A DNA stretch of 64,000 bases from Pseudomonadota bacterium (GTDB lineage: Bacteria; Desulfobacterota; Desulfobacteria; Desulfobacterales; JAHIVH01), in the NCBI GenBank assembly GCA_018816735.1, contig JAHIVH010000016.1:9-64008 (forward strand), written 5' to 3'. Both the position numbers and the translations under genes were made by a program. Below, one piece after another: positions 1-63,052 of the stretch (the stretch's first letter is position 1; every line of letters begins with the position of its first letter). The notes beneath the pieces were generated by a model. It saw only the letters and a program-made list of their open reading frames with translations, made no database searches and was not told the origin of the DNA.

Positions 1-271
1 CTGAGGGGCAATCGACATTAAAGGGTTCGAGTTCATTAAAATCGAGATGCTCTGATCGTTCTGGTATAATTTTATTTTTTAACGTGACTCCTAATTCTTT
101 ATGAGTTCTTCTTTTTAATTTAGCATAGCCTTCATCTTTAAGGGTACGCTCAACTGTCCTTGAAGAAATTTTGATAGCGTCTTCGAAAAGACGATCTTGA
201 ATATCAGAAGCAGACAACCTCATTTTCCTATATTCAATAATTTTGTCTTGTACGTCAGGTATTGGCGTGAG
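1..271 (-). mobile_element. Putative transposase fragment (HTH region), runs off window edge, 5' end missing
   Basis: Not in ORF track. Minus strand reads open TPIPDVQDKIIEYRKMRLSASDIQDRLFEDAIKISSRTVERTLKDEGYAKLKRRTHKELG..., resembling the HTH/'GF.KL.RR' segment of IS transposases. Confidence 0.55.
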
Positions 272-287
272 AGTATTTACACGCCAA

Positions 288-1078
288 TATTCGGAAACAG
301 ATATGCTTCTTCTTTTTGAAGCAGATGAAGAAACCGGTCGCCTTGCCATTGAAATGAAAAAGCGGCATCCCTCCATGAAGGTGGTTCAAAGCGCGTCTCT
401 CTCGTCATCAATCGGTTCCCTTGTGGCAGTTGATGAAGGGCTTTCAGGTTCGCCATCGGTTATATTGGGTCAATTGAAAGACGCGTTAATTGAAATGGGC
501 GAAGGAATATCTCCTGATGATTCATGGTGCGAGACGTTATTGGCTGAAAAAAAGGTGCTTGAGGCGGAGATCATGAGTTCATTTGATGGACGATCCCTGT
601 TGTCCGGCCTTTTACTGCCATGAGAACGGTCAGTGAACTTATAAAGCCCCAGGACATGATTATCTGTGAAGGAGAACTTCTTTCAAAAATGGCCATGATC
701 CATCTTGAAAATGTCGGATTGCACAACATTATTTTTACCGGAGATTCACCAGTCCCAGGGGCGGGTTTGCCACTGTCGATTGGTGTGAAAATCGCAAGGC
801 CGGAAAGCCGGGTGTTTCTTTTTACAGATACAAGGAATCTTAAACGGCATCATCGGGAATTCCAGACAGCCAGCCGGTATCATCTTCCGGTGACCACATT
901 TTTGTTTCAGGGTAACAAGGAAAAACCTGACGAGGAAGTCGATTTTTCCATATTGTCCGAAAGTTTGGGCGTACCGTCCAGGCGGATTTCAGATCCTTCG
1001 GAATCATTGACGGCAAGTGAAGTTGAGTCTTCATTTGATTCCCTGAAAGGCATGCTTTTTGATATGTCATCCTGTTGA
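288..1078 (+). pseudogene. Thiamine-pyrophosphate-binding (acetolactate synthase-like) protein, C-terminal remnant with frameshift
   Basis: ORFs 243-623 and 620-1078 join if one T is added to the run at 610-613 (GLFTAMRTV). GAGLPLSIGVKIARPESRV and EFQTASRYHLPV match the TPP C-terminal domain. N-terminus absent. Confidence 0.6.
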
Positions 1079-1100: not shown

Positions 1101-2491
1101 CTATAGCGAAAAATCAAAAGATTCGGGCCGCTCAAGTTTGACCGGAATATCAAAACCGTAATGATCTATATAGTCTTTATATCTCTTGTAAATCGTTTCT
1201 TTTCGAAATCCGTATTCTTCCAGAGTATACTTATGCCTGCCGTATTTACCCTGTTTATTGCTTTTCAGATAAATTTTCATTTTTTCTTCAAATTCATGGG
1301 TGTAATCCAGATCAAATTTCCGGTAAATTTTTTTTACTACCGCAATTGGGTCTGAAAACAATTCTTCATACACACAATCAAATATGTGTTCCTCTTTTTC
1401 TAAATTTTTTTTTCGATACGTGAAAGGCACCATGAAACATTTCTCAAAATGCGTCTGCTGAAATTGCCCAAATCGATATTTGTCAAAAGAATTTTTTTTA
1501 TCGAAAGGAAGCAGGAAAGACTCTGTAAGACGACAAAAGGATGGGAGGGTGACAACAGGGTTTCGATGGGTGAGGACGATTCGTGCGTCAGGGTATTCTT
1601 CAAAAATGGTGGGGAAATAATGCGCATAATTCGGGGCTTTAAGTGTCCAATGCGACTTTGCGGGGTGATAGGCATCGAGCATTGTAAAAAAAATCCGTTC
1701 GTAACGGAATACCGGATGCTTCCCTTGTAATTTGCAGAAGTCGTCTATATAGGTCTTTCCTGCGGTTACACTATTCATGGCAAATATCCCGTTATGGGCG
1801 AGCATATACATCAAAGACTCTTCTTTCTCGGTTGCGGACCACAAATGGGATTCTGCACATTTTCCATGAAACCTCGAGCCAATCGTGACATGATCGTCAC
1901 AGCGGAGCTGCTGCTATTAATCCTCCTGTCATTCAGCGGATTGGCTTTGGATGTCAGTGGCGGGATGGGAATTTCCATCTCAAAAGTATAAGGCGAACGC
2001 GTATTGGGATCTTCACTCATCAAACGATGCAACAGGGTTGTGCCTGACCGGGGTGGGCCCGTTATGATAACAGGGGCCTTAAGTTTTCCGTTGGCTTCTA
2101 TAAAGGTCTTGTTCGCATGATAGTATTGAAGTACCTTTTTCCGATTTTTTAACCAGTTCAGTACTATTTTTTTAAGCAGGAATCTGCCAACAGGAGATAG
2201 AAACGGGTTGTTATCAAATCCATCACAAAACGATATAATGAGGTCTCTGATATCATTTATCTCCTCTTTTGTTCCCACATAATGATCCAGATGACCAGCG
2301 CTATCGAATTCCTTCAGCAAGGTTTTCTTCAGCCTGAACGCCTGAGAATTGAATGCACGATATATGGCGTCTATCCATTCAACAGGTTTCAACACAGAAG
2401 AGTACTTAACATGATTGTTTGGAAAACGTTCCATGGGAATGTCTTTGCCATTTTGAGGAAACTGTCCGTAATAATTGGAAAAATCAGGCAT
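1101..2491 (-). pseudogene. Sulfotransferase family protein split by a 1-bp frameshift
   Basis: PAPS-binding motif ITGPPRSGTT in the upstream ORF. KAPNY and LTHRNPV in the downstream ORF. Adding one A to the run at 1860-1863 restores FMEKCAESHLWSATE. ATG 2491 overlaps the MMPL 3' end. Confidence 0.75.
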
Positions 2492-4949
2492 TTTTCTGCA
2501 TTCCTTTTTTCCTGCGTTTATTATTGCCACCGGTAGCAAGGACCATCAATGCCGGTGCGACAAAAAAATCAGCCAGCAATGCCAGTATTAAGGTGAATCC
2601 TGTCAGCATTCCAAAGGTAGAGATATTATTCATGCTGGCAAATATAAAAATAAAGAAACCGGTTGAAAGGACACAGGTTGTAATTAACATCGCGTGACCG
2701 GCAGTATTAAGGGCCTCCATGACAGCAAACACCGGATCATTTTTTATTTCATAATATTTTCTAAAATTGTGCATAAAATGGATGGTATCATCTACGGCAA
2801 GGCCAATGGCAATACTGCCGATCAACATGTTAAATGGGCCTAAATATATTTTTAGCCAGCCCATGATGCCTAATATGACAGCGATAGGCAACAGGTTGGG
2901 TATCATGCTTAGAATGCCCAATTTGATGTCACCGATTAAAAGAATCATTAGGATCGATATAACGATAAATGCCACAATATAACTGCGGGCCATGCTGGTG
3001 GCTGTATTGACAAGTGTTCTGCAAAAAAGGGGGATCATGCCGGTCAGAACATACTTGGCATCTGGAAAGGTCTCCTGAAAATAGTGATTGATAGAATCTA
3101 AGAAATCCATATAGAGAAAAGCATCATTTAATGGGAAGATCATGGTCAATCGGGCTTTTTTAAACTGCTCGTCCGTAAAATATTCCAGGTCGGTGGAACC
3201 TCTGTTTTCAAAAAGAAGAAATTCCTGGGAAATCAAATATTCATCCCCGGGTATCGCATAAGACACTTTTTCATTGTTATTCAGGGCCCGATTGATTTCC
3301 TTTAGAATGGCAGTAACAGACCAGGCTTTTCCGATATAGATGTCACCTGATTTTAAATTTTCGAGGTATGCTGTCGATTGGTCCAGTTTTTTCAGTGTGA
3401 CGGGATCATGAAGGCCATTTTTTTTACCGGTATCTATAACAATTTCCGAATACATTGATCCGTGCATATTTTTATCAATGGTTTCAGTTGCAACACGAAT
3501 GGGGTTATCCCTGGGGAGCCACTTTGTAGAATTATAAGCAAATCGGAGCCTTGTTAGACCGATAGATGCAAAAAAAAGGATAACCAGAGAAACAGTCAAT
3601 ACGCGAAGGGGATATTTGACCGCAATCGTTCCTGCTTTTGTTATCAGGGGATCAATGATGTTCACTTTGACTCGTGTTTTTTTATGTATAACAGGTTTTA
3701 AGGGGATGAGTGCAATAAGTGCAGGCAAAAGAAATATTGTGTAAAAAAAAGCAATTAAAACACCGATGCTTCCATATATGCCCAAGTCTATGATAGGCGC
3801 GATTTTCGCTGTTGACAGGGACAAAAGGCCGCCTGCTGTTGTAATTGAAGTCATCAGAATCGCTAACCCTGAATGACCAAAAGCATAAATAATCGCCGCC
3901 TCTTTATTGTTGCTTTTATTGAAGTGCTGAAAAAAAATCGCAAGAATATGCACGGCATCCCCCATGCCAACAGCAAGCAGGAAGGAAGGTAAAATAGATG
4001 TGGGCAATTTGAGAACTGCGCCGGTAGCGGCCATGATTCCTATCGTTGATAAAAGTGAGAGATATACGACTAAAAGAGGCAACACAACACCTGACATTCT
4101 TAAAAATATCGCATAAAGAAAGATGGATATGGTGACGATGGTTAACCCCATAAATAGTGTCATATCATGCGTCGTGTCAGCGTTTAAAAAATATTGTAAT
4201 ACTGGCGAACCGGTGAGATAAATTTTTATTGTGGGGGATTTATGTGTTTCAATACTATCAATAACGGCTTTGATAGCTTCGTTGGTTTGTGCTTCGGTTA
4301 TCAGATCAACATTCCCGGTATTATTTTTATTCGCCGATGGTTTTGCTAAGTCGGCATCCATAGCGATATCTTCACCAAACCCATCTAAATTATTTTCTTT
4401 TTTATCGTTCGGAAGATATACTTGGGTTTTTATGATAATGGTTGTATAGGTGTCGTCATCGGAGATCAGAAGATTTCGATAAAGCGGATTTTCAGAAATT
4501 CGGTTTTTTAAAACCAAAAGGTCTTCAGGTGTTTCTGGCCAGTGTTCAAAAAGTTCTTCCACAATCAACTGATTGTCATTGCCCCGAATATTTCTGGCGT
4601 TAATCAGGCTCGTGACCTCTTCCACATAAGGCACATTTTCTTTGATATCGGTATGAAGTGCCTTCAGTTGCCGTAAAAAATTCAGATCGTAAACATTTTT
4701 TGTATGGATCGCGACGATGATCCGTTCGTCACGGCCGAATTCCTTACGAAAATCATTGTACACCAAAAGGTCAGGATCATTTTTTTGCAACATCCCTTCA
4801 AGCGATGTATCAATTGTAATTTTAGGGAGATAAAATAAGGTTGGGAGTATCACAACAAACATGATGACACATGTTTTAACCGGATGATGATATCCGGTAA
4901 ACGCGATATTTTTAAACCATTTTTCAATCGTTAACCTGAAACTGGACAT
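2484..4949 (-). CDS. MMPL/RND-superfamily transporter
   Basis: 821 aa with two repeats of periplasmic domain plus TM bundle. Motifs GMGDAVHIL and IGLAVDDTIHF. Confidence 0.9.
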   Translation of the reverse strand: MSSFRLTIEKWFKNIAFTGYHHPVKTCVIMFVVILPTLFYLPKITIDTSLEGMLQKNDPDLLVYNDFRKEFGRDERIIVAIHTKNVYDLNFLRQLKALHTDIKENVPYVEEVTSLINARNIRGNDNQLIVEELFEHWPETPEDLLVLKNRISENPLYRNLLISDDDTYTTIIIKTQVYLPNDKKENNLDGFGEDIAMDADLAKPSANKNNTGNVDLITEAQTNEAIKAVIDSIETHKSPTIKIYLTGSPVLQYFLNADTTHDMTLFMGLTIVTISIFLYAIFLRMSGVVLPLLVVYLSLLSTIGIMAATGAVLKLPTSILPSFLLAVGMGDAVHILAIFFQHFNKSNNKEAAIIYAFGHSGLAILMTSITTAGGLLSLSTAKIAPIIDLGIYGSIGVLIAFFYTIFLLPALIALIPLKPVIHKKTRVKVNIIDPLITKAGTIAVKYPLRVLTVSLVILFFASIGLTRLRFAYNSTKWLPRDNPIRVATETIDKNMHGSMYSEIVIDTGKKNGLHDPVTLKKLDQSTAYLENLKSGDIYIGKAWSVTAILKEINRALNNNEKVSYAIPGDEYLISQEFLLFENRGSTDLEYFTDEQFKKARLTMIFPLNDAFLYMDFLDSINHYFQETFPDAKYVLTGMIPLFCRTLVNTATSMARSYIVAFIVISILMILLIGDIKLGILSMIPNLLPIAVILGIMGWLKIYLGPFNMLIGSIAIGLAVDDTIHFMHNFRKYYEIKNDPVFAVMEALNTAGHAMLITTCVLSTGFFIFIFASMNNISTFGMLTGFTLILALLADFFVAPALMVLATGGNNKRRKKGMQKNA

Positions 4950-10540: not shown

Positions 10541-11824
10541 TCAGGTACACGCATTCTCGACAACAGAATCAACAATTTTTCGGCATTCTGAAAGACGGTC
10601 GGTTTCTATGTATTGATACGCCCCGTCCTGCGTATCCAATGAACGGGCGATAATCTTTCGGCAATGCGGGCCTCCGAAAGTGTCCTGTATTTTGAGATAT
10701 AGACTCCTGCAGCGGTTATATAAACGGGCAGGGAGGAATCGCTTCTCATCCTCAAATATGCGGTCGTTTTTAATCAGGCCGTGAAGGATGATCCGCACCG
10801 TGTCGGAATATCCCGAATTTCTTAAATCGACGTTTTCCTGGAGTCCCATACATAGAACACCCCCTAACAGTGCACCGCAGACTGTGCCATTTAATCCGAT
10901 ATCACCTATGAATCCGCGGGAAGCGTCTCTGATCGCATCAATATTAAGCCCGGTTTTTTTGTGTACTGTTTCAATGACACTCTGGCAGCAGTGAAAATTA
11001 TAGGATTCAAAATGATTGGTGATCCTTTGAATGGCTTCCATATCATGCGTATTCAGGAAGTTCATCTCCCCTCTGGTTACATTCAACGCCAGTTTGTCTA
11101 ATATTTCTGCCCCGTTTTTCAAAATGGCCATGCACTTTAAAGGTGTTCCGGTCAGAACGGCACGACGGAAATTGCGTGTCAGATGATGCCCGCCGTGGAC
11201 AAGACCGCAGTTTGGTGTGTGAACCCGTTTTTCAAGCTGTCTGTAAAATTCGGAGCACAGCGGATAAAATTCATCTGAACGGAGTTCCGGGAATTTTTTC
11301 CCGAGAATGATCGTTCCACCGTTTGCGGTACCCCGAATCACAAACCCAGGTGATCGCCGTTTTTTGCTCCCGAGATCTGACAGAATGGGGGTGATACCAA
11401 AAGGGTCAAATACCTTAAGGGAAACAATTCCCCATAAGAAGCCGCTGATTGCGATCAATACCATGGCATGGGGCAGAAGCTTCAACTGAAGGGGGAACTG
11501 AAAAATGATCGTGTTTGATGGCTGCCAAAGGAGTACTGTAAAGGAAAGAACCATACTTGACAAAATGGAAAAGGTCATCCCCTGGTAATGACTTTGAATG
11601 AAGGAAGATAGCCAGCTTTTAAACGACTTACGTACCATGACACTGTGCTGGATGAAAAATACGATTGAAATAAATCCGTCCCAAATCAACAACTGGACTT
11701 CCGGACCATCGAAGCGGAAGATGGTAAAAGGGCCAAGGATTATAAAGCTACCAAATAGAAGAAACGATCCTCCAAAAAGAATGATGGATAGCGCTATTAT
11801 AGCTTGAGCAGCAAATCGATGCAT
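10541..11824 (-). other. In-frame chimera: N-terminal part of a NnrU/nurim/MddA-like membrane methyltransferase fused to the C-terminal part of a C-GCAxxG-C-C redox protein
   Basis: FFIQHSVM..., FDPFG..., GFVIRG stops where GPY..VRHP is expected (~11328), then GTANGG, HCCQSV, VCGALLGG, GGPHC. Confidence 0.65.
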
Positions 11825-11836: not shown

Positions 11837-12352
11837 TTATTTTTTATCCATGATTTGAGTGCCTTGATTGGTCTGGTTACTGCAACAAGAGCTTAGAAGC
11901 TGCCTGAACGCACTGTTCTGATGATCCAAAAGACGCGTTATTTCTTCAATCGATTCGAGGAGAATTTTCTGCTTGCTTTCAGGAACAAGATCTATAAGGC
12001 CTGCAATTACCTGGTTGCATTGAATATCGAGATATTGATACGTTTTTTTTCCTTCATCGGTTAATTGGACTTCAACTTTTCGCTGGTTGCCCGAAAGGCG
12101 TGCCCGATTTACATAACCTTGTTTTTCAAGTTTTTCCACAATCCGGCTGAGCGTACTCTGGTGCAGGGCCACTTCGGAAGCCAACTCGTTCATGGCCTTG
12201 GGACCATCTGCAAGGGCTTCAAGCGTGTAGCATTGCTGAACGGTGACAGGGCTGTTGGCAAGCTGTTCACGCATCAGTTGATTGACGAAACGGGCCAGGC
12301 GAGTAAACGCCTTTCTACTTCTTAAAATAAGTTGAGATTTTTCAGATTCCAT
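11837..12352 (-). CDS. MarR family transcriptional regulator with C-terminal Cys-Cys
   Basis: wHTH ELASEVALHQSTLSRIVEKLEKQGYV..RKVEVQLT. GGAGG precedes ATG 12352. Confidence 0.88.
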   Translation of the reverse strand: MESEKSQLILRSRKAFTRLARFVNQLMREQLANSPVTVQQCYTLEALADGPKAMNELASEVALHQSTLSRIVEKLEKQGYVNRARLSGNQRKVEVQLTDEGKKTYQYLDIQCNQVIAGLIDLVPESKQKILLESIEEITRLLDHQNSAFRQLLSSCCSNQTNQGTQIMDKK

Positions 12353-12386
12353 TAAATGCCTCCCGGGAATGTTTGCTACGGACAAT

Positions 12387-14172: not shown

Positions 14173-14481
14173 GCGTCTGTTATCCGGGTAACCGCATTTG
14201 GATTTTCAGTGATCGGTGGTGTTAAAACTAACCTGCTGAAATTGATATAGCTGGATCAGGATGATGAGTTTTTCTGTAATGGTCTTCTCAGATGGCGGCC
14301 ATCATGACGCCGTCATACATCTCTTGACAAATACCTAATTCCTATCCTATATGTCTTGGCCAATTTCTGGTTGACAACAACCAAAAAAACCAGAAAAGGG
14401 GGGCAAGATGCATGAAGACGGCCCGTGGCGGTTACTGAAAACGTCTCTACGCGCGGCTGCGCGTTGAGCAAGGAGTTAATT

Positions 14482-48645: not shown

Positions 48646-48916
48646 AGGCTAACGTTTATTTTATTGTATCTTCTATCCTTTTTGTATATTATGCATTTTA
48701 AATATGAATCAATGCGGATAACTTTTTAATCATTCGCGAAATTCATGAAGGCTTCATAATGACGTTGATTTTTTTTAGCAAGGAAGCCTAACTATCCAAG
48801 CACCATCGTGAAAACCAGGATGCCGGGCAACTTCAGCTTACACTGACTTCATCAAACCTTGTAACCATCAATATCCTTTGGTCCGATTTTCCCAATATAA
48901 AACAAGAAGGCAACCC

Positions 48917-51900
48917 ATGCCAGTAAAAAAGAAATCCGGCGATACGCCAGAGAAGAAAAGAAAATCAACGCCAAAGACATCAAAAAGTCCTTTACCATCC
49001 CACGCTGCCAAAGAACCCGAGAACCTGAAACCCGCTGATAATGACCGTTTTTTCATTGTGGGCATGGGCGCATCTGCAGGCGGCTTGGATGCGTTGGAAA
49101 AATTTTTTCAACACATGCCGCATGACAGCCATATGGCCTTTATTGTTGTAACCCACCTTGATCCCAATCATGTAAGCATCATGCCTGAACTGATCCGGAA
49201 ACAAACCCAGATGACGGTGCTGACCATTGCAGACGGATTGAAGGTTGACCCTGACTGCATATACATCGTGCCGCCCAACAACGATGTGGGGATAATACAC
49301 GGGTTCCTTCAACTCATCGAATTTGTGGAGGGCACTAGCCATCGGTCGCCCATCAACTATTTTTTTAAAACCCTTGCGGCTGATCAAAAAGAAAAAGCCA
49401 TCGGTATCATCTTGTCCGGGATGGGAACGGACGGCACTCTGGGATTAAAAGCCATAAAGGAAGAACAGGGCATGGCCATGGTGCACGATCCTGAAACCGC
49501 GAAATTTGACGGCATGCCAAAAAGCGCCATTGAAACCGGACGGGCAGATTATATTTTGCCACCTGAAAAAATGCCGGATCAGCTCATAAAGTATATCAAG
49601 GGCACTTTTGCCACCACAGATCAAGCGGTTGATTTGAGCAAAAAGTCAATGGGCATCTTGCAAAAAATCTTTATTACGATTCGATCCCAAACCGGGCATG
49701 ACTTCTCACATTATAAGAAAAATACAATCCTGAGACGCATTGAACGCCGGATGAATGTCCACCAGATTGACAGCATTACCCATTATTATAAATATCTTCA
49801 ACAAAGCGCCACTGAAGTTAAGATATTGTTCAACGATTTTTTGATCGGCGTGACCCGCTTTTTCAGGGATTCGGAAGCGTTTGATGCGCTGAGTAAAAAT
49901 GGGTTTCCAAAACTGTTAGAAAACAAACCCGGTGATTACACCCTGAGAATGTGGGTCCCGGGTTGCTCCACCGGTGAAGAAGCCTATTCCATAGGGATTG
50001 TTCTAAAGGAATTTATGGATCGGAACAACCTGAATGTGAACGTCCAGATATTTGCCACCGATCTTGACCCTGACACGATAGACATTGCCAGAAAAGGCCT
50101 TTTCCCGGCAAGCACCGCGGAAGATGTGGGAAAAGAGCGCCTGAGCCGTTATTTTGCGAAACAGGGTGACGGTTTTCAGATCCGGACAGAGATCCGGGAA
50201 ATGATCGTGTTTGCTGCCCAGGATATTATCAAGGACCCGCCGTTTACCAAACTGGACCTGATATCCTGCCGCAATTTATTGATTTATTTTGACAATGACC
50301 TGCAAAAAATGCTCATACCGCTGTTCCATTATGCACTCAACCCAAACGGGGTTCTTTTTTTAGGCACCTCTGAAACCATTGGCGGGTTTCTGGATCTGTT
50401 TTCGGTCATGGATAAAAAATGGAAAATCTATGAGCGCAAACCCGGCACACACGCAAAACATGCTTTTATTCAGTTTCCCGTCTCATTACCGGTTACACAG
50501 GCTGTTTCTAACGCACCACCCCAAATAGCCAACGTTTCAAATCATCAGCTTATAGAGCGTGTCCTGCTTAGAGATATTGCACCGCCTTGTGTCTTGATCA
50601 ATGAAAAAGGGGAAATACTTTATATCCACGGCAGAACCGGCAAGTATCTGGAACCGGCCCCAGGAGAGTTTCAGCTCAATATTCTTGATATGGCCCGGAA
50701 AGGATTGAAATTCAAACTGTCTGCCGCCATCAGAAAGGCGGTAAATACGCAAAAGGAAATTGTTTCAGCGGGCCTTACGATTGAGGGTAACAGCCATCCT
50801 CAGATGATCAACCTGATTGTAAAACCCCTTCACGAATCCAATACCCAACACGGTCAATTGCTGATCATATTCGAAGATTTAAAAATACCCGTAAAAGAAG
50901 ACCACAGTGAACATAAACTTGGCCCAGATGACAAAACAGCGGAAAGCATAAAAAAGGTTGAAGCAGAGCTGCAATATGCCAAAGAAAACCTGCAGACCAC
51001 CATTGAAGAACTGGAAACGTCCAATGAAGAACTCAAATCGACCAACGAAGAGCTGCAAAGCACCAACGAAGAATTGCAAAGTACCAATGAGGAGCTGAAA
51101 ACATCCAAGGAAGAGCAGCAATCGTTAAGCGAAGAACTGCAAACCGTTAATTCGGAACTTCAGAAAAAAATTGAAGCGTTCTCCCAGGCAAACAATGACA
51201 TGAAAAACCTGTTGGATAGCATGGAAATTCCCACGCTATTTCTGGATAATCGTCTGTGCATCAAACGGTTTACCGCCCCCATCCATAAAATCATGAATCT
51301 GATCCCATCAGATATCGGGCGCCCCATCAATGATATGGTGGTCAAATTGAAAGATACAATCATTGTCAATCTTGCTGAAAAAGTCTTAAAGGATCTGGCG
51401 TTCAGGGAAAAAGAAGTCATCACTCACGACGGGCACTGGTATTTAATGCGGATTCGTCCTTATCGCACACTGGATAACATCATTGACGGGCTGGTCGTGA
51501 TATTTTTGGACATTGACGATCAAAAATCCGCCATGAAAAAAATAGAAACCTTAAATACTGAAAACCAGGATGCCCGTAATTATTCGGAAAGCATCATTGA
51601 AACACTCAGGGAATCGATCCTGGTACTTGATCATGAACTGAGAATCATATCTGCCAACAAATCATTCTATCGGTATTTTAAAGTATCTGAACAAGAAACG
51701 ATTGGGAAAAAGCTCTATGACCTGGGAAATGGGCAATGGGACATCCCGGATCTTAGACGGTTACTCGATGAAATCATCCCCCAGGATACTGCGTTTGACG
51801 ATTATAAAATTGAGCATGACTTTAAATCGATCGGCTTAAAAAAACTGACCCTGAATGCCCGAAAAATTGTGGCCAATGGCAGCAAAAAGGAAAAGATACT

Positions 51901-51922
51901 TTTGGCCATAGAGGCTTCATAA
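48917..51922 (+). CDS. CheB/CheR fusion protein with PAS domains
   Basis: [40 protein letters not shown] coiled-coil repeats. Confidence 0.92.
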
Positions 51923-51948
51923 AAAATATTTGAAAAATCAGACTGCTG

Positions 51949-54276
51949 TTGAAGGAGAAAACAATGGAAGCGTATTCAACCCATTCCCTGTCCAATATCA
52001 GAGCCCGGGCAGAGAAGATCCTCCGGGAAAACCCGGAAAATCTATACAAAATACCTGCCCATGATATCCAGAAGCTCCTGCATGAGCTCTATGTCCACCA
52101 GATCGAGCTTGAACTTTCAAATGAAGAGCTGCGATCTGCCCAAAAAATATCAGAAGAAGCAAAACAAAGGTATTTTGATTTATATGACCTTGCACCGGTG
52201 GGCTATTTTACACTCACCAAAACCGGCCAGATTCTGGAAGTCAACCTTTCAGGCGCTGACTTGCTGGGCGTTGAAAGAAAAAAACTGATCAATACCTGGT
52301 TCAGGCAGTTTATTGTTCCGGAGGATAGCGATGCATTTTATCTCCATCTGAATACATGCCTGAAGACCTGTACCAAAGAGACCTGTGACCTTAAAATGAA
52401 AACAATAGATGGTATTCCGTTTTATGTTCACATGGAAAGTGTGGCGGATCTGGATGACAATGACAGGGAAGATGTCCTCAAGGTCACACTCACAAACATC
52501 GATAAGCTTAAATCGGCTGAGGCCTGCCAACAACTGACCATAGACATCCTTTTACAGATCAATCAGACGGACGAAACCGTGGACCTGGTCCGGAATATCC
52601 TTCTCCTGATTAAAACGTTTTCTGAATCGGAAGCGGTTGGCATCCGCCTGAATGATGGTGAGGATTTTCCGTATTATTTTACCAATGGGTTTTCATCTGA
52701 TTTTGTCCAGGCTGAAAACCATCTTTGCGTCAAAGATGCAGATGGAAAAACAGTAAGAGATGCAGCGGGAAATCCCGTGCTTGAATGCATGTGCGGCAAT
52801 GTCATTTGCGGCAGAACCGACCCGGCGCTTCCCTTTTTCACCCAGCATGGCAGCTTTTGGACCAATAGCACCACAGCGCTTTTGGCGGCTACCTCGGAAA
52901 AGGACCGGCAGGCCCGGACAAGAAATCGCTGCCATGGCGAAGGATATGAATCCGTTGCCCTGATTCCGTTACGTTCCGGAAAGAAAGTACTTGGCCTCCT
53001 TCAGTTGAATGATCGTCGCAAAGACCGGTTGTCTCTTGACCGGATTCATTTTTTGGAAGGCATCGGAAACAGTATTGGCATTGCCCTGGATCGAAAAAGG
53101 GTCATGGAAGAAAAAGGGGTGCTTGCGGAACAGCTCCGTCAGTCCCAAAAAATGGAGGCCATCGGCACCCTGGCAGGGGGTATTGCCCATGATTTCAATA
53201 ACATGCTCGGTGTGGTTATCGGCAATGTTTCCTATGCGATATCCAGCCTGAATCCAAAAGAGGACATCGCTGCGATTTTAATCGATGTATTAAATGGCTC
53301 AAAGCAAGCCCAAGCCCTTACCCGGCAGCTTCTGACATTTGCCAAGGGGGGCGCGCCCATCCTGAAAGTCTCGAACATCAACCGGTTGATTCAGGATTCT
53401 GCGACGTTTGCGATCAGTGGTGCAAACGCAAAATGTGAATTCAGCCTGGCCGATGATCTTTGGACGACTGAAGTGGATGAGGGACAAATCAATCAAGTCA
53501 TCAGCAACCTAGTGATCAATGCCAACCAGGCCATGCCCCAGGGCGGTATCATTACCATACGGACCGAGAATACAGAAATCGGACCTCAACGTGGCGAGCC
53601 CCTACCTTTGGGGCGATACATTAAAATCAGTGTTGAAGATCAGGGCGTAGGCATTTCAGAAAAACATATTTCTCATATTTTTGACCCTTATTTTTCGACA
53701 AAACAGGCAGGAAGAGGCTTAGGACTTGCAATCACCTATTCCATCATCAAAAGGCATGGCGGAACGATTACCGTTCATTCCAAACTCAATCAGGGAACCA
53801 TTTTCCATATTTACCTGCCTGTCTCTTTGAAGGAACGCCAGAAAACCGAAGGAAAGAAATATGCGGTGCATCACGGTCATGGTAAAATCCTGATCATGGA
53901 CGATCAGGAGGCTATATTAAGAATGGTGGGTAATATGCTGGCCAGTATGGGATATGAGACGGTTGGTGCCACAGATGGCACCCAGGCGATTGAATTGTAT
54001 CAAGCGGCTTATCAATCTCAAACTCCCTTTGATCTGGTCATTCTCGACCTCACCGTGCCGGGAGGTATGGGCGGCGTCAAGGTCATTTCCGAATTATTGA
54101 AAATAGATGCAAGTGTTAAAGCCATTGTCTCAAGCGGCTATTCCAACGATCCCATCATGGCCGGTTATCAGGATTATGGGTTTTGTGGTGTTGTCCCAAA
54201 GCCATATACGAAGGATCAAATGGCGGAACTATTAAACAAGGTTCTGTCTGTGGGCAACGAACAACACAGATATTGA
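51949..54276 (+). CDS. PAS-GAF hybrid histidine kinase
   Basis: LYDLAPVGY PAS, Cys-rich GAF, IAHDFNN, receiver LVILDLTVP. Confidence 0.9.
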   Translation: MKEKTMEAYSTHSLSNIRARAEKILRENPENLYKIPAHDIQKLLHELYVHQIELELSNEELRSAQKISEEAKQRYFDLYDLAPVGYFTLTKTGQILEVNLSGADLLGVERKKLINTWFRQFIVPEDSDAFYLHLNTCLKTCTKETCDLKMKTIDGIPFYVHMESVADLDDNDREDVLKVTLTNIDKLKSAEACQQLTIDILLQINQTDETVDLVRNILLLIKTFSESEAVGIRLNDGEDFPYYFTNGFSSDFVQAENHLCVKDADGKTVRDAAGNPVLECMCGNVICGRTDPALPFFTQHGSFWTNSTTALLAATSEKDRQARTRNRCHGEGYESVALIPLRSGKKVLGLLQLNDRRKDRLSLDRIHFLEGIGNSIGIALDRKRVMEEKGVLAEQLRQSQKMEAIGTLAGGIAHDFNNMLGVVIGNVSYAISSLNPKEDIAAILIDVLNGSKQAQALTRQLLTFAKGGAPILKVSNINRLIQDSATFAISGANAKCEFSLADDLWTTEVDEGQINQVISNLVINANQAMPQGGIITIRTENTEIGPQRGEPLPLGRYIKISVEDQGVGISEKHISHIFDPYFSTKQAGRGLGLAITYSIIKRHGGTITVHSKLNQGTIFHIYLPVSLKERQKTEGKKYAVHHGHGKILIMDDQEAILRMVGNMLASMGYETVGATDGTQAIELYQAAYQSQTPFDLVILDLTVPGGMGGVKVISELLKIDASVKAIVSSGYSNDPIMAGYQDYGFCGVVPKPYTKDQMAELLNKVLSVGNEQHRY

Positions 54277-54445: not shown

Positions 54446-54643
54446 ATGAAAGGTATTGTTTTTTCTGAATTTCTCGATATGGTCGATGGGAAGTTTTCCA
54501 TCGAGATGAGTGAACGCCTTGTCAGTGAGGTAAAACCACCTTCCGGCGGCGCATATACAACAGTGGGCACTTACGATGCCCAAGAAATTGTGGATTTGGT
54601 GTCAAAGCTATCCTCTATTACCGACATCTCCGTTCCTGATCTA
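54446..54643 (+). pseudogene. Heme NO-binding (HNOB/H-NOX) domain, N-terminal remnant
   Basis: GGAGG RBS, MKGIVFSEFLDMV..GAYTTVGTYD. Ends after about 66 aa. Confidence 0.82.
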
Positions 54644-54869
54644 TCAGGAGGTCGAACGCCTTTCCCGCATTGATCCACTTACAGAAATAAGCAACCGTCG
54701 CAGTTTCATTACCGATGCGCTTCGCCTTATACAGTTGGCAATCCGTCATCAAAAAAAACTGTCCTGCGCCATGCTGGATATTGATTTTTTCAAACAGGTT
54801 AACGACACCTATGGCCTTTATAAGGCTAAAGAAAACGGACGAAACCGTATTGTTCTCTGGAAAGATTGA
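54642..54869 (+). pseudogene. GGDEF diguanylate cyclase remnant with core deleted
   Basis: DPLTEISNRR, MLDIDFFKQVNDTYG joined directly to LYKAKENGRNR, so the GG(D/E)EF motif is absent. Confidence 0.85.
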
Positions 54870-55087: not shown

Positions 55088-55639
55088 TTATGGGGCTTTC
55101 GTCGCACTCATGGCCGCTTCAACACCTTTGCTGAAATCGGTCGGGACCGTCATCATTCGTGCGGCAAGCTCCCGGTCCAGCATCAATAACGCATGGGGAT
55201 CGTTATTGATGAGTTTGAGTTGAAGAATGATATCATTGTCATTCTCCTCTTCTTCCACCTGTTCGTTGACATACCACTGCAGGAAGATTTGCGAGGCATG
55301 ATCCTTATGCTTTATGGCCAGTTCCATCAGATCGTTGATCGATCGGGTGATAAACTGTTCGTGCGAAAGGGTCTGGGTGAACATGTCCATGGGGGATTTG
55401 AACTCCACCGGTGGTTCCTTAAGGGCCTTCAACCTTACCTGAGCGCCCTGGCGCTGAATGTACTCATAGAATTTCATGGCATGCACCATTTCCTCGTGAT
55501 ACTGGACCATGAACCAGTTGGCAAACCCTTTGAGGCCGATGGAACTGCTGTAGGCTGACATGGACATGTAGAGAAAGGCCGAATACATCTCCCGGTTGAT
55601 CTGTTCATTGATTGCGTTAACGATTTCATCTTTCAGCAT
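55088..55639 (-). CDS. ftnA: Non-heme ferritin
   Basis: NEQINREMYS, EEMVHA, LQWYVNEQVEEE. GGAGG precedes ATG 55639. Confidence 0.92.
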   Translation of the reverse strand: MLKDEIVNAINEQINREMYSAFLYMSMSAYSSSIGLKGFANWFMVQYHEEMVHAMKFYEYIQRQGAQVRLKALKEPPVEFKSPMDMFTQTLSHEQFITRSINDLMELAIKHKDHASQIFLQWYVNEQVEEEENDNDIILQLKLINNDPHALLMLDRELAARMMTVPTDFSKGVEAAMSATKAP

Positions 55640-55685
55640 AATAACCTCCATTTTTAGTGTTATAAGTTGTGTTTTGACTTCATAT

Positions 55686-55815
55686 TCATATTACATGGGG
55701 CACTACCAAGACAGGCACGGGCGCCTGTCGAAGGACCAGTTCCGTTGTTTTTCCCATCACTGTGTCTGCCAGGAATGGTTTGTGATTGGCACCCAGAATA
55801 ATGAGATTGACATCC
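55686..55815 (-). pseudogene. Universal stress protein C-terminal remnant
   Basis: Not in ORF track. Reads DVNLIILGANHKPFLADTVMGKTTELVLRQAPVPVLVVPHVI*. Confidence 0.78.
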
Positions 55816-56524
55816 AAAGGCCAATGCCAGAGGCGAGTTTTCCGATGGAATCTTTTGAGTGCACTAATTCCCGGAGTCCCAGCAAAAGCGTTGCTGCCAG
55901 AAGGGGAATGAGATAATAACTGCCGCGATAGGCCAGAAGAACGCCAATCATTTCCGTGGACGGTATGAACGGCGACATGAGCAGCAGCATCGCTGTTTCA
56001 AACACGCCGACACCTCCTGGAATCTGGCTGGCAATCCCTGCAATCTGGGCCAGGAGGAAAAGACCGAGAAATCCGGTCCAGGAAACCGGGGCTGTGTCTG
56101 GAAGCAAGACATACAGTATGCTGCCGGCAAGAGCCCAGTCCAGAATGGCGATTCCCAAAAGCATTCCCTGCAGGTTGACGGTTGGTCGCGAAAAATCCCA
56201 GTCACCTATCTTGAAACTTGTTTTGCCGATACGATTGAAAACGATGTCGGCTATGATAATGCCGATGCCGATCGCGCCAACCAGCCGCAGGGGATGATTT
56301 ACATATCGGACGCCTGCCGTATCATAAGCAGTCATGTTGAGATAATTCAGCATTGTCAATAGCAGGGCTGCCGCTACCTGCCCCATTGGAATTTGTCTGA
56401 TGCCCGCAAGGATGCCGGCCAAATGATAACTGGCCAGTTCCCGGCTAAGTATCCAGACAGCCAGGATGAACAGCGCAAGCCCGATAAACGGAATGATTCT
56501 TGACATGATTTTGGTGTGTATCAT
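55809..56524 (-). pseudogene. mprF: MprF (lysyl-PG flippase/synthase) N-terminal remnant
   Basis: SQIPGGVGVFE, LLAYRGSYYLIP. Apparent internal deletion at ~56290 and no synthase domain. Confidence 0.72.
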
Positions 56525-57082
56525 ATACCGCGATTACCTAAGAATTTATTGTTCGGGTGGTTTCAGAACGTTTTAGGTTGTTAAAGAATGCGATTATAAA
56601 CCAGATATTTAATCAATGGGCCACCAAAAATCAACACATATTTATTCAATCCATACGACAAGGAACGTATCGCGCTCAATTGGACAGATTGGCTTTGTGC
56701 TGTGAAACAGCCTGTGGGCTATTTGAGAATTAAAGACCAAGTGATTGCGCCGTATAGAGGGCGCTGCCAACCTGATGAGGATGTCCTGTTATTTTCCAGT
56801 GATGGGCGCTATGCGGCTGGTGGTCAATCAGATAGAACGAACCGGGTTTGTATTTATCAAAAAGATAAGGGTATACGATGAAACGTTCCGTTTTTGCAAG
56901 TTTGAGAGCCATGGCTACAGATGAACAGGCAAGCGCGCCGGTACCGCAGGATAGGGTTTCTTTGTTGATCGCTCTTTCAAAACACCTGTATCGGATAATG
57001 GATTGTGATGTATTGGGCGTGTTGACAATCTGTGCAAAAGTGAGATTCAGGCCTTTGGGGAAGAGATGTTTATAATCCTGAT

Positions 57083-60000
57083 GATGAGGGAAAGTCCATT
57101 GCCGATCTGTCGATCCTGCCGGAACATGAAAAAGATCTGATTCTAAACCGGTTTACCCGCGTGTCGACCCCATACCCCAAAGAAAAAAACCTGGTCCAAC
57201 TGGTGTGGGCTCAGGCGGAAAAAGCCCCGGATAATCCTGCGGTCATCACCGGGGACTCACGCGTTACCTACCGGGAATTGACCGAGCGGGCAGGATGTCT
57301 TTCTTATGCTCTTAAAGAAGAATTTCATGCCCGGCAAGGTGAGTATATCGTCGTGTTGATGGCCGACAGCGAAGCTCTTGTCCAGGCGATTATAGGCATT
57401 CTGGGAGCCGGATGCATATACGTCCCCCTTGATCTCTCTTTTCCTGAAAAAAGGGTCCGGCATGTGCTGGATGACACCCAATGTCGTATCATGGTTACAG
57501 ATACAGGTAATAAATCCGTTTTGGAAGACCAATATCCTGAGGTATCGGTTGTGGATGCCATGGATGTGAACGGCCGATCCGGGTTCAAAGGAGACGATTT
57601 GCCTGGTTTGAAACTTTCCGGTGGCGACATCGCCTATGTGATGTATACATCCGGCACCACCGGCAGACCCAAGGGAAGTCTTATCCGCCATCAGTCAATC
57701 TCAAGACTGGTTGTGAACACGAATTTTATTACCTTTCAGCCATCGGACAGCATATTGAAGACAGGAACCGTGGCCTTTGACGCCTCCACCTTTGAAATTT
57801 GGGGAGCCCTTTTAAATGGCGCGTCCTATTGTCTTCCGGAAGAAAAAACAATCCTCGATATCATTGCATTGAAAAAATGTATTCGAAAATGGGAGATCAC
57901 CATCTCCTTTTTCACCACCAGCCTTTTCAATACACTGGTTGACCTGGATGATGATCTGGACAGTGGGTTGTTCAGCGGCCTCAGGTATGTGGTGACCGGC
58001 GGGGAGAAAATATCACAGACCCATGCCAAACGATTTAAGGTGCGTTACCCGGATATTGCCTGTAAAAACCCGGTCCCAGGAAATAACCGGAGAAATCTGG
58101 TCCCAGCTTTTAAATGTGGATCATGTTGATATTGACGATGATTTTTTTAGCCTTGGCGGCCATTCTCTCAAGGCAACCCAGGCAGTATCCCGTGTGAACG
58201 AGACGTTCGGCATCCATTTTTCGGTGAAAACACTATTTGAGTATTCGGATCTGTTCTCTTTTTGCAGTCAGATTGACCAGGCCCTTAAGATGAAAGGCTG
58301 GCTGGATATCCGTGCGCTTGAAAAAGCCATTAATGAAATCGTGCGGCGTCATGAACCGTTGAGAACCTTTTTTATCAAGAAGGACAGAGCCCCGGTACAG
58401 AAAATCGCCCCCATGGCCCATATTCCGCTGAACGTTACCAATCTTGAAAAAAAGACTGATGAAGAAACACAGGAAGCACTTGCCATGGCGCTTGCAAAAG
58501 ACGCAGGAGAGATTTCTCCCTTACAAAATCGCCCTTGATCAGGGTGCATCTTTACCGGCTCGGGGATGCTACCCATCTTTTTTCCTGCGTGATTCATCAT
58601 ATTGTTGCAGACGGATGGTCGATTGGTGTTTTCGCAATGGAGCTGGGACGTTTGTACAACGCGTTTTCTTCAGGTCAAAAGAGTCCCTTGCCGGAGATAG
58701 CGATTCAATATAAGGATTTTGCCCACTGGCAGCGCGCCTATCTCTCAGGGGATGTCTTTGAAAAACAAAAAAATTACTGGCTTGAACGGTTAAAAAATTT
58801 TGAGACGCTGACGCTTCCCAAAGACAGGCCCCGGCCGGAAATCCCCACCTTTAAAGGGGGAAATGTTGGTATTGAGATCGATCCTGAATTGACGCGGTTG
58901 CTTTATAAGGCCAGGGAAAAAACAAATTGCTCCTTATTTATGCTTCTGATGAGTGCGTTTGCAGCCCTTCTGTCAAGGTATTCGGGACAGGATGATGTGG
59001 TGACCGGGACGGCTATTGCCAACCGTAACCGGAAAGATATTGAACCGCTTATCGGTTTTTTTGTCAATACCCTTATCCTCCGGTTTGATTTTTCAAAGGA
59101 AGTGACGGTTAAAGCGTTCATCGCCCAGGCAAGAGAGATAATTCTCGATGCCTACGCCAACCAGGATTTTCCTTTTGAAAAACTGGTGGAAGTGCTGGTG
59201 CCGGAGAGAGAACTTGGCGGTTACCCCATATCCCAGGTGAACCTGACATTTCAGAACATGCCGCTATCGATGCCGGAGATGAAGGCGTTGACCATAGAAG
59301 GCGTGAATCCGCAGGATCATACGGTCCGGTTTGATCTTGAGATTGATTTCTGGGAACAGGAAGATCGCATCCTGGGTCATTTCAGATACGCATCGGAACT
59401 GTTCAACCGGTCAACCATTGAAAGGATGGCCAGTCATTTTAAAGTACTTCTTTTCTCCATGCTTGAAAATCCGGATGCCCGCGTATCTGATCTGGCCATG
59501 CTGACCGAATCTGAAATAACATCACTCCATGCTTTGAGCGGCAATACTACTCCTGTAATCACAGAAAAAAAGTTGCTTCCCGAGTTATTCCGAAAACAGG
59601 CTCAACTGCATCCGAAAGCCATCGCCCTCATATGCGAAGACAGACAGATGACCTATGAAGAACTGGAGACCTATTCTAACCAGGTGGCTGCCTGTTTAAC
59701 ATCAAAAGGCGCAGGTCCCGGTAACCTGATCGGGTTGTGCATGAACCGCTCAATTGAAACCATGGCCTCATTAATCGGCATTTTTAAATCCGGGTCTGTT
59801 TATGTGCCTATCGATCCTGACTATCCTCAGGAACGGATTTCATATATCATAAAAGACGCCGGGCTCCGTACCATACTGACCCAGGATGCATGGGTCGCTG
59901 CCGGACTTTTTGAAGGCCATGACCTTGATATGATCTGCCGGGAACAGGTTGTGGGAAAAATCACGGATATGGATTTTTCTTCTGTTTCTCAGGAGAAAGG

Positions 60001-63000
60001 AGACGCTAACGACCCGGCCTATGTGATCTATACATCAGGCTCTACGGGAAATCCAAAAGGGATTCTGGTTTCAAAACAAAGCCTTTCACAGCATTGCCTG
60101 AATGCCGCAGGTTTTTACAGGATTACAGAAAAAGACAGGGTGCTTGAGTTTGCCTCCCTGAGTTTCGATCCTTCCCTGGAGCAGGTTTTTGTGACGCTCA
60201 TCAAGGGGGCGTCCCCTTGATGGCAGGCGGGCCTATGTCCTTGACAGGCATCATCATTTACTGCCCCATGGCATTCCCGGCGAATTGATTTTAGGGGGGG
60301 ACGGCGTGGCACTGGGCTACCTGAACCGGCCGGAACTGACAAGGACAAAATTTATTCAAAGCCCGTTTCCGGAAAAAGCCGCAGGCACGATGTACAAGAC
60401 CGGGGATCTCGTCCGATGGTTTGATGACGGGACGATCGCATTTTTAGGAAGAACCGACAATCAGGTAAAAGTCAGGGGATTCCGTATTGAACCTGAGGAA
60501 ATAGAATACTGCCTTGCCGGTCACCCGTTTGTCAAACAGGCGGTTGTTGCCGTAAAAAAGGATTCAACCGGACAGAATCAACTGGTTGGCTATATTGTTC
60601 CGGATCTGGAGGCAGCAACAGACAGAAACGAAAAAAAGGACTGTGAAACGTCCCTGCTGGACTGGCATCGCGCCATTCACAACCATTATACGGACATGGA
60701 TGTGGCAGAGCTGACTTTTAATATCAGCGGCTGGAACTCCAGTTATACGGGGCAGCCTATTCCTTCATCTGACATGCGCCAGTGGGCGGAAAGAACGGCA
60801 GAACAGATTATCGCCCTAAAGCCTGTGCATGTGCTTGAAATTGGGTGTGGCACGGGACTCATCCTGTCAAGAGTCGCCCCTGTATGCAAAAGCTATGTGG
60901 GGATTGATTTTTCAACGGCGGCCCTGGACTTCACCCGGCAGATGATCAACAAAACGAAAAATCTAAGTCATGTGCGTGTTCAGGAACAGGAGGCCAGGGA
61001 TTTCCGCGGTTTTGAGAAGGAAACCGTTGACACGATTATTATCAATTCCGTCATTCAGTATTTTCCGGATGCCGCCTATATTCTTGAGGTGATAAAAAAC
61101 GCCTTGATCGTTCTTAAACCCGGCGGAAAGATTTTTATTGGCGATGTCAGGAATTTAAAACTGCAAAAGGAATTCTATGTTTCGGTTGAACGGTTTAAAC
61201 GCGGGCCATCCGCTGATGTTAAAGATATTATCGCCGGAGTGAATCATGCAAAGGCAAACGAAGAAGAACTTTTTGTCGACCCGGATTTCTTTTATGACTT
61301 ACGGGCGAAATTTCCTGAAACCGGGCATATCGCCGTCAGACCCAAGCCAGGCCAGTATCGCAATGAAATGAGTCTCTACCGCTATGATGTGGTCATCTAT
61401 AAGCAGGCGGTTTTGCCCGGTGTCACGGTCAATAAAGGACCGGTTGAAACCATACACGAACTGGTTCGAATGATCCGTGAGCATCCGGGTATCCCGATCA
61501 AAATTGAATCGATCGCCAATGCCAGAAATCAAAAGGATCAATGGATGATGCAGCAATTGGAAAACCATATGGCCGGCGACAAGGCCGAATCGTTTTTAAA
61601 CGATCCGGATATATTCATACCCGCAGGCATTGAACCTGAAGATATCATCAAGGTTTGCCGTTCCTTGTCGGTAACACCTGAATTCTTCATTTCCGGGAAA
61701 TACCATTTTGACCTGATCGTTCAGCCTGAAAATGCACCGCTTGTGTTAACCGAAAAACGGTCAGATGACAGTATTGACCGTCCTGATAAAAAGGCTTCCC
61801 CGTTTACCAATCAGCCGGCCTTGGGTATTTTTATGAAAAAACTGGTTCCCGGTGTCAGGGCGTATCTTAGAAATCATCTGCCCGGCCACATGGTGCCATC
61901 ATTCCTCCTCGTGCTGGAATCGCTTCCTTTACTGCCCGGCGGCAAGATCGACAGAAAAGCATTGCCAGACCCCTTGTCCATGAATATGAGAATACAGGGA
62001 GGGAATATGTAGCGCCTGTCTCCCCCATTGAAAAGCAATTGGTCAATATCTGGCAGGATCTCCTTGGTGTTTCGAAAATAGGCGTTCATGATGATTTTTT
62101 TCTTTTAGGCGGGCAGTCATTGCTTGCCGTCAGCCTGATATCAAAAATAAACACGGAGATGAACAAGGATCTCCCGCTCTCTGTTTTATTTCAAAAATCA
62201 ACCATCCATGACCTGGCCGAATTGATTGAAAAGGAACAACGCCCCTGGTCACCGCTGACTGCTGTCAGAGAAAACGGCACACAAACGCCTTTGTTTTGTT
62301 TTTTCCCTGCAGGAGGAAATATCTACGCCTATTCGGATTTGGCAAATGCCCTTGACACGGATATACCGTTTTATGTGCTGCAGGCTGTGGGCCTTGAAAA
62401 AGGACAGACCCCGATAAACAGTGTTGAGAAGATGGCGGAATACTATATTGAATGGATCAAATCGGTTCAGCCTGAAGGGCCATTTCGATTATCCGGCTGG
62501 TCATTTGGCGGTCTTGTGGCGTTTGAAGCAGCCCGGCAGCTTAAATCACAGGGGTACAAAATTGATTTTTTGGCCCTGTTTGACAGCTCGGCTAAAAATT
62601 CACAGGAGATATTGAATTTGGATATGGAGAATAACGCCGCCTTTATGGCAGGGCTGTTCGCTGAATTTATAACCATTTTACCGGAAGAATTGCAGGGCAT
62701 GTCCGCAGAGGGTCAGATCCGGTTTGTCCTTGAAAAAGCGGTGAAACAGGGCTTTGTTTCTTCAGACCTGGATGTGGCGCAGGCCACCCGCCTTTTAAAT
62801 GTATATAAAAACAATGGCATGTCCGCTATCAATTACCGGGCCGGCGCATATGACGGAGAGATTCTGTTGTTCAAGCCTGAAGAGGAATCCTTGTCGGCAT
62901 TTCAATATACGGAACAAGATTCCCAGGGGTGGGAAGAAGTCACGTCCGACCTTAAAATTTACAAAGTCCCAGGCAAGCATGAAACCATGCTCATGGCAGG

Positions 63001-63052
63001 AAATGTCAAAAAGCTGGCCGGTATCCTGAATAATACCCTTTTAAAAAACTAA
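57083..63052 (+). pseudogene. Degraded non-ribosomal peptide synthetase: A'-PCP-C'-A'(nMT)-PCP-TE
   Basis: YTSGTTGRPKG, FFSLGGHSL, HHIVADG, YTSGSTGNPKG, YKTGD, VLEIGCGTG, GGQSL, GWSFGG. Broken by deletions at ~58060, ~58285, ~60212 and frameshifts at ~58510, ~62000. Confidence 0.88.

Follow-up and report, generated by a model that had tools for sequence, protein, structure and literature searches.

Why does one contig of a groundwater bacterium carry a long run of intact genes between two flanks in which gene after gene breaks off, skips its own core, or switches abruptly into another gene? The contig, C83 (65,171 nt), belongs to a metagenome-derived draft genome of 135 contigs (6.50 Mb, 43.8% G+C, 94.5% completeness), and the window analyzed here is the stretch of 64,000 nt from base 9 to base 64008 of that contig. 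The sequence occurs in sequencing runs of groundwater metagenomes, and the source organism is a groundwater bacterium, represented by a Thermodesulfobacteriota-like metagenome-assembled genome (MAG). The original prediction for this window listed 15 sharp joints and read them as active genome erosion by short-homology deletion or alternative end joining. The answer that we favor is that the flanks probably record ordinary deletion-biased pseudogene decay, of unusual local density, in an otherwise intact genome.

Joints were placed where the similarity to full-length relatives breaks off, sets in, or skips a segment, using tblastn, Pfam, and PDB alignments. Pfam scans were run on 15 open reading frames (ORFs) of the left flank and 14 of the right, and in these 29 ORFs the matches often covered only part of a profile; the LPG_synthase_TM profile, for example, was matched only at positions 209 to 301 of 302. 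As judged from homology, the two flanks carry remnants of a bimodular nonribosomal peptide synthetase (NRPS), an H-NOX/GGDEF pair, an MprF-like membrane protein, and a radical-SAM/SPASM enzyme, together with remnants of an acyl-CoA ligase, an M90 peptidase, a thiamine pyrophosphate (TPP)-dependent enzyme, and an in-frame NnrU-like::C_GCAxxG fusion. Of the 15 listed joints, 12 were reproduced by homologue coordinates to a precision of a few bases (11328, 12681, 13267, 15298, 15855, 54642, 54815, 56290, 57083, 58060, 58285, and 60212), and the coordinates first given were accurate overall. The remaining three were not upheld. The joint at ∼280 is the end of an insertion sequence (IS) copy at base 259 rather than a microhomology deletion; a joint at 16115 is not demonstrable because the kinase receiver domain there is complete; and one at 55812 is not demonstrable because membrane-only relatives (310 to 335 amino acids [aa]) end naturally at that point.

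The NRPS gene lies on the plus strand in five pieces that are collinear with multi-module relatives. Piece 1 (57068..58057) comprises the final ∼17 aa of a condensation domain, followed by a linker and by adenylation positions 2 to 312 of 384. Its homology starts at 57068 (joint 57083), just after a stop codon, with the upstream part absent, and tblastn with multi-module NRPS relatives places the loss of its last ∼214 aa near 58055 (joint 58060). Piece 2 (58020..58517) holds PP-binding positions 5 to 60 and Condensation positions 30 to 115; its carrier domain is joined in frame at ∼58285 to condensation position ∼30 with a loss of ∼48 aa (166 window residues against 214 reference residues in the alignment), and a frameshift lies near 58500. 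Piece 3 (58490..60214) continues with Condensation positions 119 to 452 and adenylation positions 1 to 232, its tblastn match ending at 60208 to 60214. Piece 4 (60207..62012), which holds the terminal part of the adenylation domain and a methyltransferase embedded in it, begins at 60207 by tblastn in another frame, so that the joint at 60207 to 60214 (listed as 60212) has ∼98 aa missing; a further frameshift is found at 61973 to 62006. Piece 5 (62006..63052) consists of PP-binding positions 4 to 67 and Thioesterase positions 2 to 223 of 226.

A separate observation concerns the end of this gene. The last ∼58 codons of the thioesterase plus a few bases (62880 to 63053) are repeated 1.2 kb downstream (64099 to 64272) at 90% DNA identity, and the two copies bracket a TumE-like toxin/HVO_A0114-like antitoxin pair (63129 to 63819). 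Contig C8 has a third copy (13310 to 13520; 80%), and the stretch has a metagenome depth 2 to 4 times higher, with variant contigs. The repeat could represent one more gene remnant, or it could mark the edge of a mobile cassette.

Upstream of the NRPS gene, on the same strand, the first 66 residues of an H-NOX (heme-NO-binding) gene (54446..54644; HNOB positions 1 to 64 of 163) are followed directly by part of a GGDEF gene. H-NOX chains in the PDB (185 to 190 aa) match at their own residues 1 to 66 only, up to the joint at 54642, after which comes the GGDEF linker. In the GGDEF remnant (54648..54869; GGDEF positions 3 to 52 of 161), this linker and the first ∼55 residues run on in frame, at 54816, into the last ∼16 residues; the remnant aligns to residues 167 to 225 of WspR and then to 322 to 337, and ∼100 aa that include the catalytic center are missing. 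The MprF-like membrane-domain gene (55757..56524, minus strand) has an in-frame internal loss of ∼85 aa, which tblastn places at 56285 to 56290: 140 of the 150 relatives among the matches listed align as two stretches with a gap of ∼85 residues. Two short MprF-like forms from the database lack a different segment in the alignment.

The left flank opens at the contig start with the 5′ part of an IS transposase gene (1..259, minus strand; weak Pfam matches to HTH_Tnp and DDE_Tnp_ISAZ013). The bases up to 259 are 92% identical to a copy on contig C129, and the IS copy ends at ∼259. It is followed by the TPP-dependent enzyme remnant (291..1078, plus strand), which is without its first ∼270 to 290 residues and has a frameshift near 620. 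TPP_enzyme_C is matched there only at profile positions 30 to 81 of 151, the PDB alignment corresponds to residues 423 to 478 of a 589-aa enzyme, and the match further upstream is weak (E = 0.72). On the minus strand, a sulfotransferase gene recognized by Pfam (1101..2539) is split by a frameshift at ∼1811 to 1844, with Sulfotransfer_3 positions 1 to 43 in one ORF and 90 to 215 in the next, overlapping ORF.

The fusion ORF (10541..11824, minus strand) reads in frame through 427 aa, of which residues 1 to 165 are NnrU/Ste14-like and residues 57 to 319 of a C_GCAxxG protein make up the rest. By tblastn, the two homology tracts abut at 11330 to 11333, the NnrU/Ste14-like tract ending at 11330 to 11333 and the C_GCAxxG tract starting at 11332. 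None of its 34 relatives spans both halves: 19 C_GCAxxG proteins (319 to 350 aa, one of 274 aa) cover only the last ∼60%, and for the other 15, NnrU/Ste14-like proteins of 244 to 257 aa, only the first 28 to 43% is covered.

Two remnants stand head to head at the 13267 joint. The radical-SAM/SPASM remnant (12594..13269, minus strand; Radical_SAM positions 50 to 161 of 166) lacks its N-terminal ∼80 to 92 aa, including the cluster-binding start of the domain, and at ∼12681 has an internal loss of ∼20 to 28 aa with a change of frame, seen as two high-scoring segment pairs in different frames. Of 150 other genomes of the order, 5 encode relatives of this enzyme (E ≤ 1e−20), with open frames of 359 to 376 aa; these relatives match from 13269 down to ∼12658, and their last 30 to 45 residues match from 12722 or 12680 to 12594 in another frame. 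Its partner is the 3′ part of the acyl-CoA ligase gene (13264..14172, plus strand; AMP-binding positions 216 to 384 of 384 and AMP-binding_C). Residues 1 to ∼252 to 263 are absent, and full-length ligase relatives (540 to 562 aa) align from their own residue 253 to 264, at base 13264. Further along the plus strand lies the core of the M90 metallopeptidase gene (15300..15854; Peptidase_M90 positions 33 to 208 of 243), cut at both ends: its homology stops exactly at 15300 and 15854, and the remnant represents residues 32 to 216 of ∼265, with 73 to 75% aa identity to the genes of two relatives.

Essential parts are thus among what is missing: the GGDEF catalytic center, the radical-SAM cluster-binding region, the first ∼252 to 263 aa of the ligase, ∼214 and ∼98 aa of two NRPS adenylation domains, and H-NOX from residue 67 to the end. 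Relatives that share the short forms as conserved genes were found for none of the fusion ORF, the ligase, and the MprF-like protein, and by database comparison the short forms of these three do not appear to be conserved as genes in relatives. For the ligase remnant, the only identical database entry is that of the window itself, and its nonfragment relatives have 540 to 562 aa. No undeleted allele was present among 5.8 billion proteins (the best NRPS match was 42% identical and the best ligase match 65%), in the same-genus genome, or in two metagenome-contig scans, and the organism's own genome contained no parent or second copy of the fragments. The genome collection includes one same-genus relative (G001, 65% complete), the other relatives searched belonging to other families of the same order. 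At the DNA level, G001 matched neither flank nor the core at 44 to 54 kb, short conserved motifs excepted, and is therefore unusable as an undeleted reference.

Between the flanks, the core (16099..54276) holds the trp operon, PPDK, arginase, sensor kinases, and other genes. None of its 26 scanned ORFs, 24 of which had a Pfam match, looked split or truncated. The frameshifts, at ∼620, ∼1830, ∼58500, and ∼61990, are indeed confined to the flanks, as first proposed, and the joints are sharp and confined to dispensable genes. That the flanks are damaged and the core is clean would follow from selection: deletions arise throughout the genome, and only those that hit nothing needed would last. The confinement to accessory genes that had been singled out therefore needs no special process, because purifying selection removes deletions falling elsewhere.

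A more trivial origin would be artifact. Metagenome assembly and multiple displacement amplification give rise to chimeras, with abrupt switches between unrelated sequences, sometimes at a few shared bases. The joints would then be absent from cells, as might be suspected in a metagenome draft of 135 contigs and at the 13267 joint, whose head-to-head orientation is common in amplification chimeras. The contig-level read check covered 44001 to 64000, which includes the right flank. There, unlike in such chimeras, the joints were reproduced by another assembler at full depth: one Logan contig of the probable source run covers 53166 to 62990 (9,825 nt) with no difference and spans all eight right-flank joints that had been listed. 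Its depth is 25.6, against 26.3 to 26.7 for core contigs (one figure per contig, in which small local dips are invisible), and no alternative contig is listed. Two joints recur in runs of two other studies, each bridged by a contig without differences (56104 to 56327 and 54574 to 54724) that extends beyond the joint by more than 31 nt in each direction. As a sample, the source run lacks independence, and the two other studies may stem from a single campaign; runs X2 to X4 yielded scattered contigs only, at a depth of ∼2, of which only the two bridging contigs were used, gaps in their coverage being uninformative. All joints except 13267 keep the strand. Exact-match metagenome-contig scans with the 13267 joint and with the interior of the M90 remnant returned no match, the organism's own records perhaps being excluded. 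In the right flank, the organism's DNA does contain the broken forms, and chimeras peculiar to a single assembly or a single amplification reaction are excluded. Taking both flanks together, we give an artifactual origin hardly any weight.

A different possibility is that the window merely samples genome-wide reductive evolution of the kind seen in host-restricted bacteria, an idea close to the active erosion of the whole genome originally proposed. We compared the flanks with 12 random 20-kb regions (240 kb, from contigs of at least 25 kb, with C83 excluded), in which 229 ORFs of at least 70 aa were selected greedily. The ORFs of these control regions were tightly packed, and their domains were almost always matched end to end. 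A criterion of under 60% of a Pfam profile proved noisy owing to divergent subfamilies, and control candidates were judged case by case; three partial matches were cut by the edge of the fetched region, and a few more were weak or typical of divergent subfamilies. This left two truncation candidates among the 229 ORFs (L021:15510-16229 and L025:600-1214), neither verified against homologues, compared with at least 12 joints in ∼22 kb of flank. The joint density is thus above the background. One control region (L031, C57:26855-46854) contains a prophage-like run with tape measure, head-tail attachment, and major capsid protein E genes, tightly packed and with no sign of decay. The coverage by long ORFs was considered as a marker of decay and rejected, as the flanks cannot be told from other parts of the genome by it; stop-to-stop frames of at least 200 aa cover 82% of the whole.

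Whole-genome censuses of two families gave a more graded picture. Among 44 AMP-binding matches, fragments occurred in three genes within the window and, outside it, at C7:485.6-486.3 kb, at C3:963-1568, and at the edge of contig C55; among 29 GGDEF matches, they occurred in the window, at C71:188.0 kb, and on C127. The AMP-binding genes at C7:485553-486792 and C3:632-1544 have internal losses of ∼160 and ∼220 aa, a GGDEF tail of 104 aa remains at C71:188022-188333, and a GGDEF copy at C127:226-690 has two stop codons. The isolated remnants on C7, C3, and C71 are damaged in the same way, having lost internal or terminal parts, and by Pfam their neighbors are intact where scanned. Deletion-type remnants are therefore scattered through the genome, and the window contains two dense clusters of them. 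Fragments making up about a tenth of two paralogue-rich families are what genome-wide reduction would also produce; the almost uniformly full-length control ORFs, the genome size, the 82% of sequence in long frames, the intact recA and mutS, and the intact-looking prophage region speak against it, and we consider it improbable.

The pieces might instead be foreign DNA that was fragmented before uptake and stitched in by illegitimate recombination. Unrelated pieces do abut, as with the radical-SAM and ligase remnants and with the M90 core between unassignable DNA, and the closest relatives of the pieces are only 40 to 75% identical, with the same-genus genome lacking them. The order of the pieces argues the other way. 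Those of the NRPS, radical-SAM, MprF-like, and H-NOX/GGDEF genes keep their native order and orientation, and such collinearity, including the step from H-NOX into GGDEF, is predicted by deletion in place and not by random stitching, which makes import of ready-made fragments very improbable. From the collinearity of the pieces, it follows that the deletions happened in place.

Under the favored reading of ordinary, locally dense decay, the flanks would be graveyards of dispensable, probably accessory genes. During or after their loss of function, many separate deletions of ∼60 bp to >1 kb would have taken cores, ends, or intergenic DNA, and a few frameshifts of the 1-bp type and one IS insertion would have added to the damage. 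Alignments give the joints, their positions, and the missing parts directly; as their cause, we infer a deletional bias on unselected DNA. The most likely mechanism would be illegitimate recombination independent of RecA, or the repair of breaks with short homology or none, in either case without Ku. The genome has intact recA (frame of 356 aa), mutS (890 aa), and one intact gene for an ATP-dependent ligase, while a search for Ku (PF02735) that detected the Bacillus subtilis control found no match in the organism's own genome (94.5% complete), which counts against the canonical form of end joining.

Putative microhomology had been noted at several joints. Alignments to the two partners overlap by ≤3 nt at 11331, 6 nt at 13264 to 13269, and 5 to 8 nt at 60207 to 60214, which agrees with that proposal but is within the uncertainty of the alignment ends. 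No motif was common to the joints beyond one 7-mer at 3 of the 15. Joints within a single gene are in frame in four of eight cases, a proportion not significantly different from one third. Exactly at the 60210 joint, bases 60199 to 60222 form a perfect 10-bp inverted repeat (4-nt loop), with one arm from each side of the deleted ∼98 codons; the 64-kb window has four stems of at least 9 bp, this one included. Hairpins with stems of at least 5 bp were found within 8 nt of 4 of the 15 joints, compared with 9.5% of random positions, a marginal excess, and no hairpins were seen at five joint positions of the remnants on C7, C3, and C71.

Scars of CRISPR self-targeting were also considered and rejected, as no spacer of the organism's own arrays matches the region. 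The genome has three arrays with 57 spacers (C72:16048-16845, C104:6919-7902, and C111:3890-6082), the repeats of which differ (32, 29, and 37 nt in 12, 17, and 31 copies). None of the 57 spacers matched C83, and none matched other contigs over more than 23 nt; a protospacer that had itself been deleted would escape this search.

The composition of the damage bears on its tempo. At least 12 deletions and 4 frameshifts were counted in the flanks, which agrees with the earlier claim that deletions dominate. We then asked how many point substitutions the same DNA had recorded, using 17 remnant tracts (12,117 nt) in which 1,453 single-base changes would create a stop codon. Not one nonsense codon was present, a deficit that under neutrality has a P value of <0.05 once divergence exceeds ∼0.6%. 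At least 12 deletions and 4 frameshifts thus accumulated within ∼75 or fewer substitutions. The nonsense deficit fits a high deletion rate or a burst, or selection favoring the removal of broken genes.

A burst would mean that several deletions and frameshifts arose at once in each flank through mutagenic repair or replication, in a single event or a few (template switching in break repair, for instance), or else that the lineage has an intrinsically raised rate of medium-sized deletions. Template-switch or break-repair events would have laid down deletions and frameshifts together, outpacing point substitutions. Besides the absence of nonsense codons, this would explain why deletions are mixed with frameshifts along 6 kb of a single NRPS gene, why an inverted repeat sits exactly across the 60210 joint, and why every one of the genome's five decayed AMP-binding genes is a remnant of the deletion type. 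The joints share no motif, however, the association with hairpins is marginal and was not replicated at the five other joint positions, and one pseudogene elsewhere (C127) does carry stop codons. Selection for removing broken genes, which has been argued for in Salmonella (PMC2916853), could also raise the share of deletions. We regard a burst as a doubtful, minor possibility. The fuller version, in which the flanks record a burst-like, deletion-dominated process in a Ku-less, healthy free-living bacterium and at least the 60210 joint formed between the arms of the inverted repeat, seems to us somewhat more doubtful still.

Several observations sit uneasily with ordinary decay, which we nevertheless hold to be the probable explanation. 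The lack of nonsense codons is one of them, and the share of deletions looks high for slow, independent decay. With the undeleted alleles missing, deletion sizes rest on relatives of 30 to 75% identity, and the read-level support for the joints is that of the right flank. Remnants hit several times are, moreover, not usual for a free-living genome when set against Salmonella (PMC2916853).

A deletion bias in the decay of bacterial pseudogenes is well described (Kuo and Ochman 2010, PMC2916853), reportedly also by Kuo and Ochman in 2009 and by Mira, Ochman, and Moran in 2001. In Salmonella, only one lesion each is found in 346 of 378 pseudogenes (PMC2916853). The resemblance to that case lies in deletions that shorten nonfunctional genes, in truncations and frameshifts as lesions, and in the dispensable nature of the genes hit; unlike there, the genes described here have 2 to 6 or more lesions each, the remnants lie side by side, and 12.1 kb is without a nonsense codon. 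In leaf-nodule “Candidatus Burkholderia,” microhomology was reported at 171 of 396 pseudogene deletion sites and ascribed to alternative end joining in the absence of Ku/LigD (PMC6054270). Our window is similar in its deletion-dominated damage and in that Ku was not found, and the four in-frame joints out of eight are in line with the excess of 3n deletions described there (PMC6054270), an excess that is not significant here. Those symbionts are host restricted, their decay is genome-wide, and mostly small deletions were analyzed in them (PMC6054270), whereas here the genome is large, the decay is local, and the deletions range from ∼60 bp to >1 kb. In host-restricted genomes of the Sodalis glossinidius type, about half of the genes are reportedly pseudogenes (PMC7067036). 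Multilesion remnants adjoin each other there as they do here, but in our genome random regions are intact.

Apparently intact genes are interspersed among the remnants, namely, genes for DUF374, MarR, hexapeptide acyltransferase, and ferritin proteins. The MarR-family regulator (11837..12385, minus strand; MarR_2 positions 3 to 60 of 61) lies between the fusion ORF and the radical-SAM remnant. Directly upstream of its start codon and downstream of that remnant is a perfect inverted repeat of 15 bp (12387 to 12419; 3-nt loop), which could be a MarR operator or a terminator. The hexapeptide-repeat acyltransferase gene (14425..15207, plus strand; Hexapep match) has a paralogue on C7 that is 45% identical and covers residues 19 to 255 of 260. 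In the right flank, the ferritin gene (55088..55651, minus strand; Ferritin positions 2 to 141 of 142) stands between the GGDEF and MprF-like remnants. Two stretches adjoining remnants could not be assigned by homology: the 244 nt that separate the M90 remnant from the kinase stop codon (15855..16098), with two small ORFs, and the 543 nt upstream of the NRPS remnant (56525..57067), with ORFs at 56730 to 56912 and 56878 to 57075. None of these four ORFs had a Pfam match. The short frames at 56730 to 56912 (minus strand) and in 15855 to 16098, which lie in this unassignable DNA between remnants, may be further, unrecognizable gene pieces. Also in the window, the ORF of SelD (selenophosphate synthetase; 8565 to 9569, minus strand) seems short at its N terminus under translation table 11, and reading an in-frame TGA as selenocysteine restores the start and a GAGU motif. 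SelD therefore looks like a selenoprotein and not like a further truncation; the DNA at 9502 to 9628 is 76 to 88% conserved across many families of the order.

The practical value of these findings lies mainly in quality control and annotation: the flank ORFs should be recorded as pseudogene remnants, and the NRPS cluster should be kept out of the biosynthetic capacity of this organism. The window also illustrates that MAG contigs with many apparently chimeric joints can be genuine. The removal of unused DNA has so far been measured mostly in host-restricted lineages; if the excess of deletions over substitutions holds in comparison with sister alleles, these flanks would provide a natural record of the rate and breakpoints of that process in a free-living bacterium.

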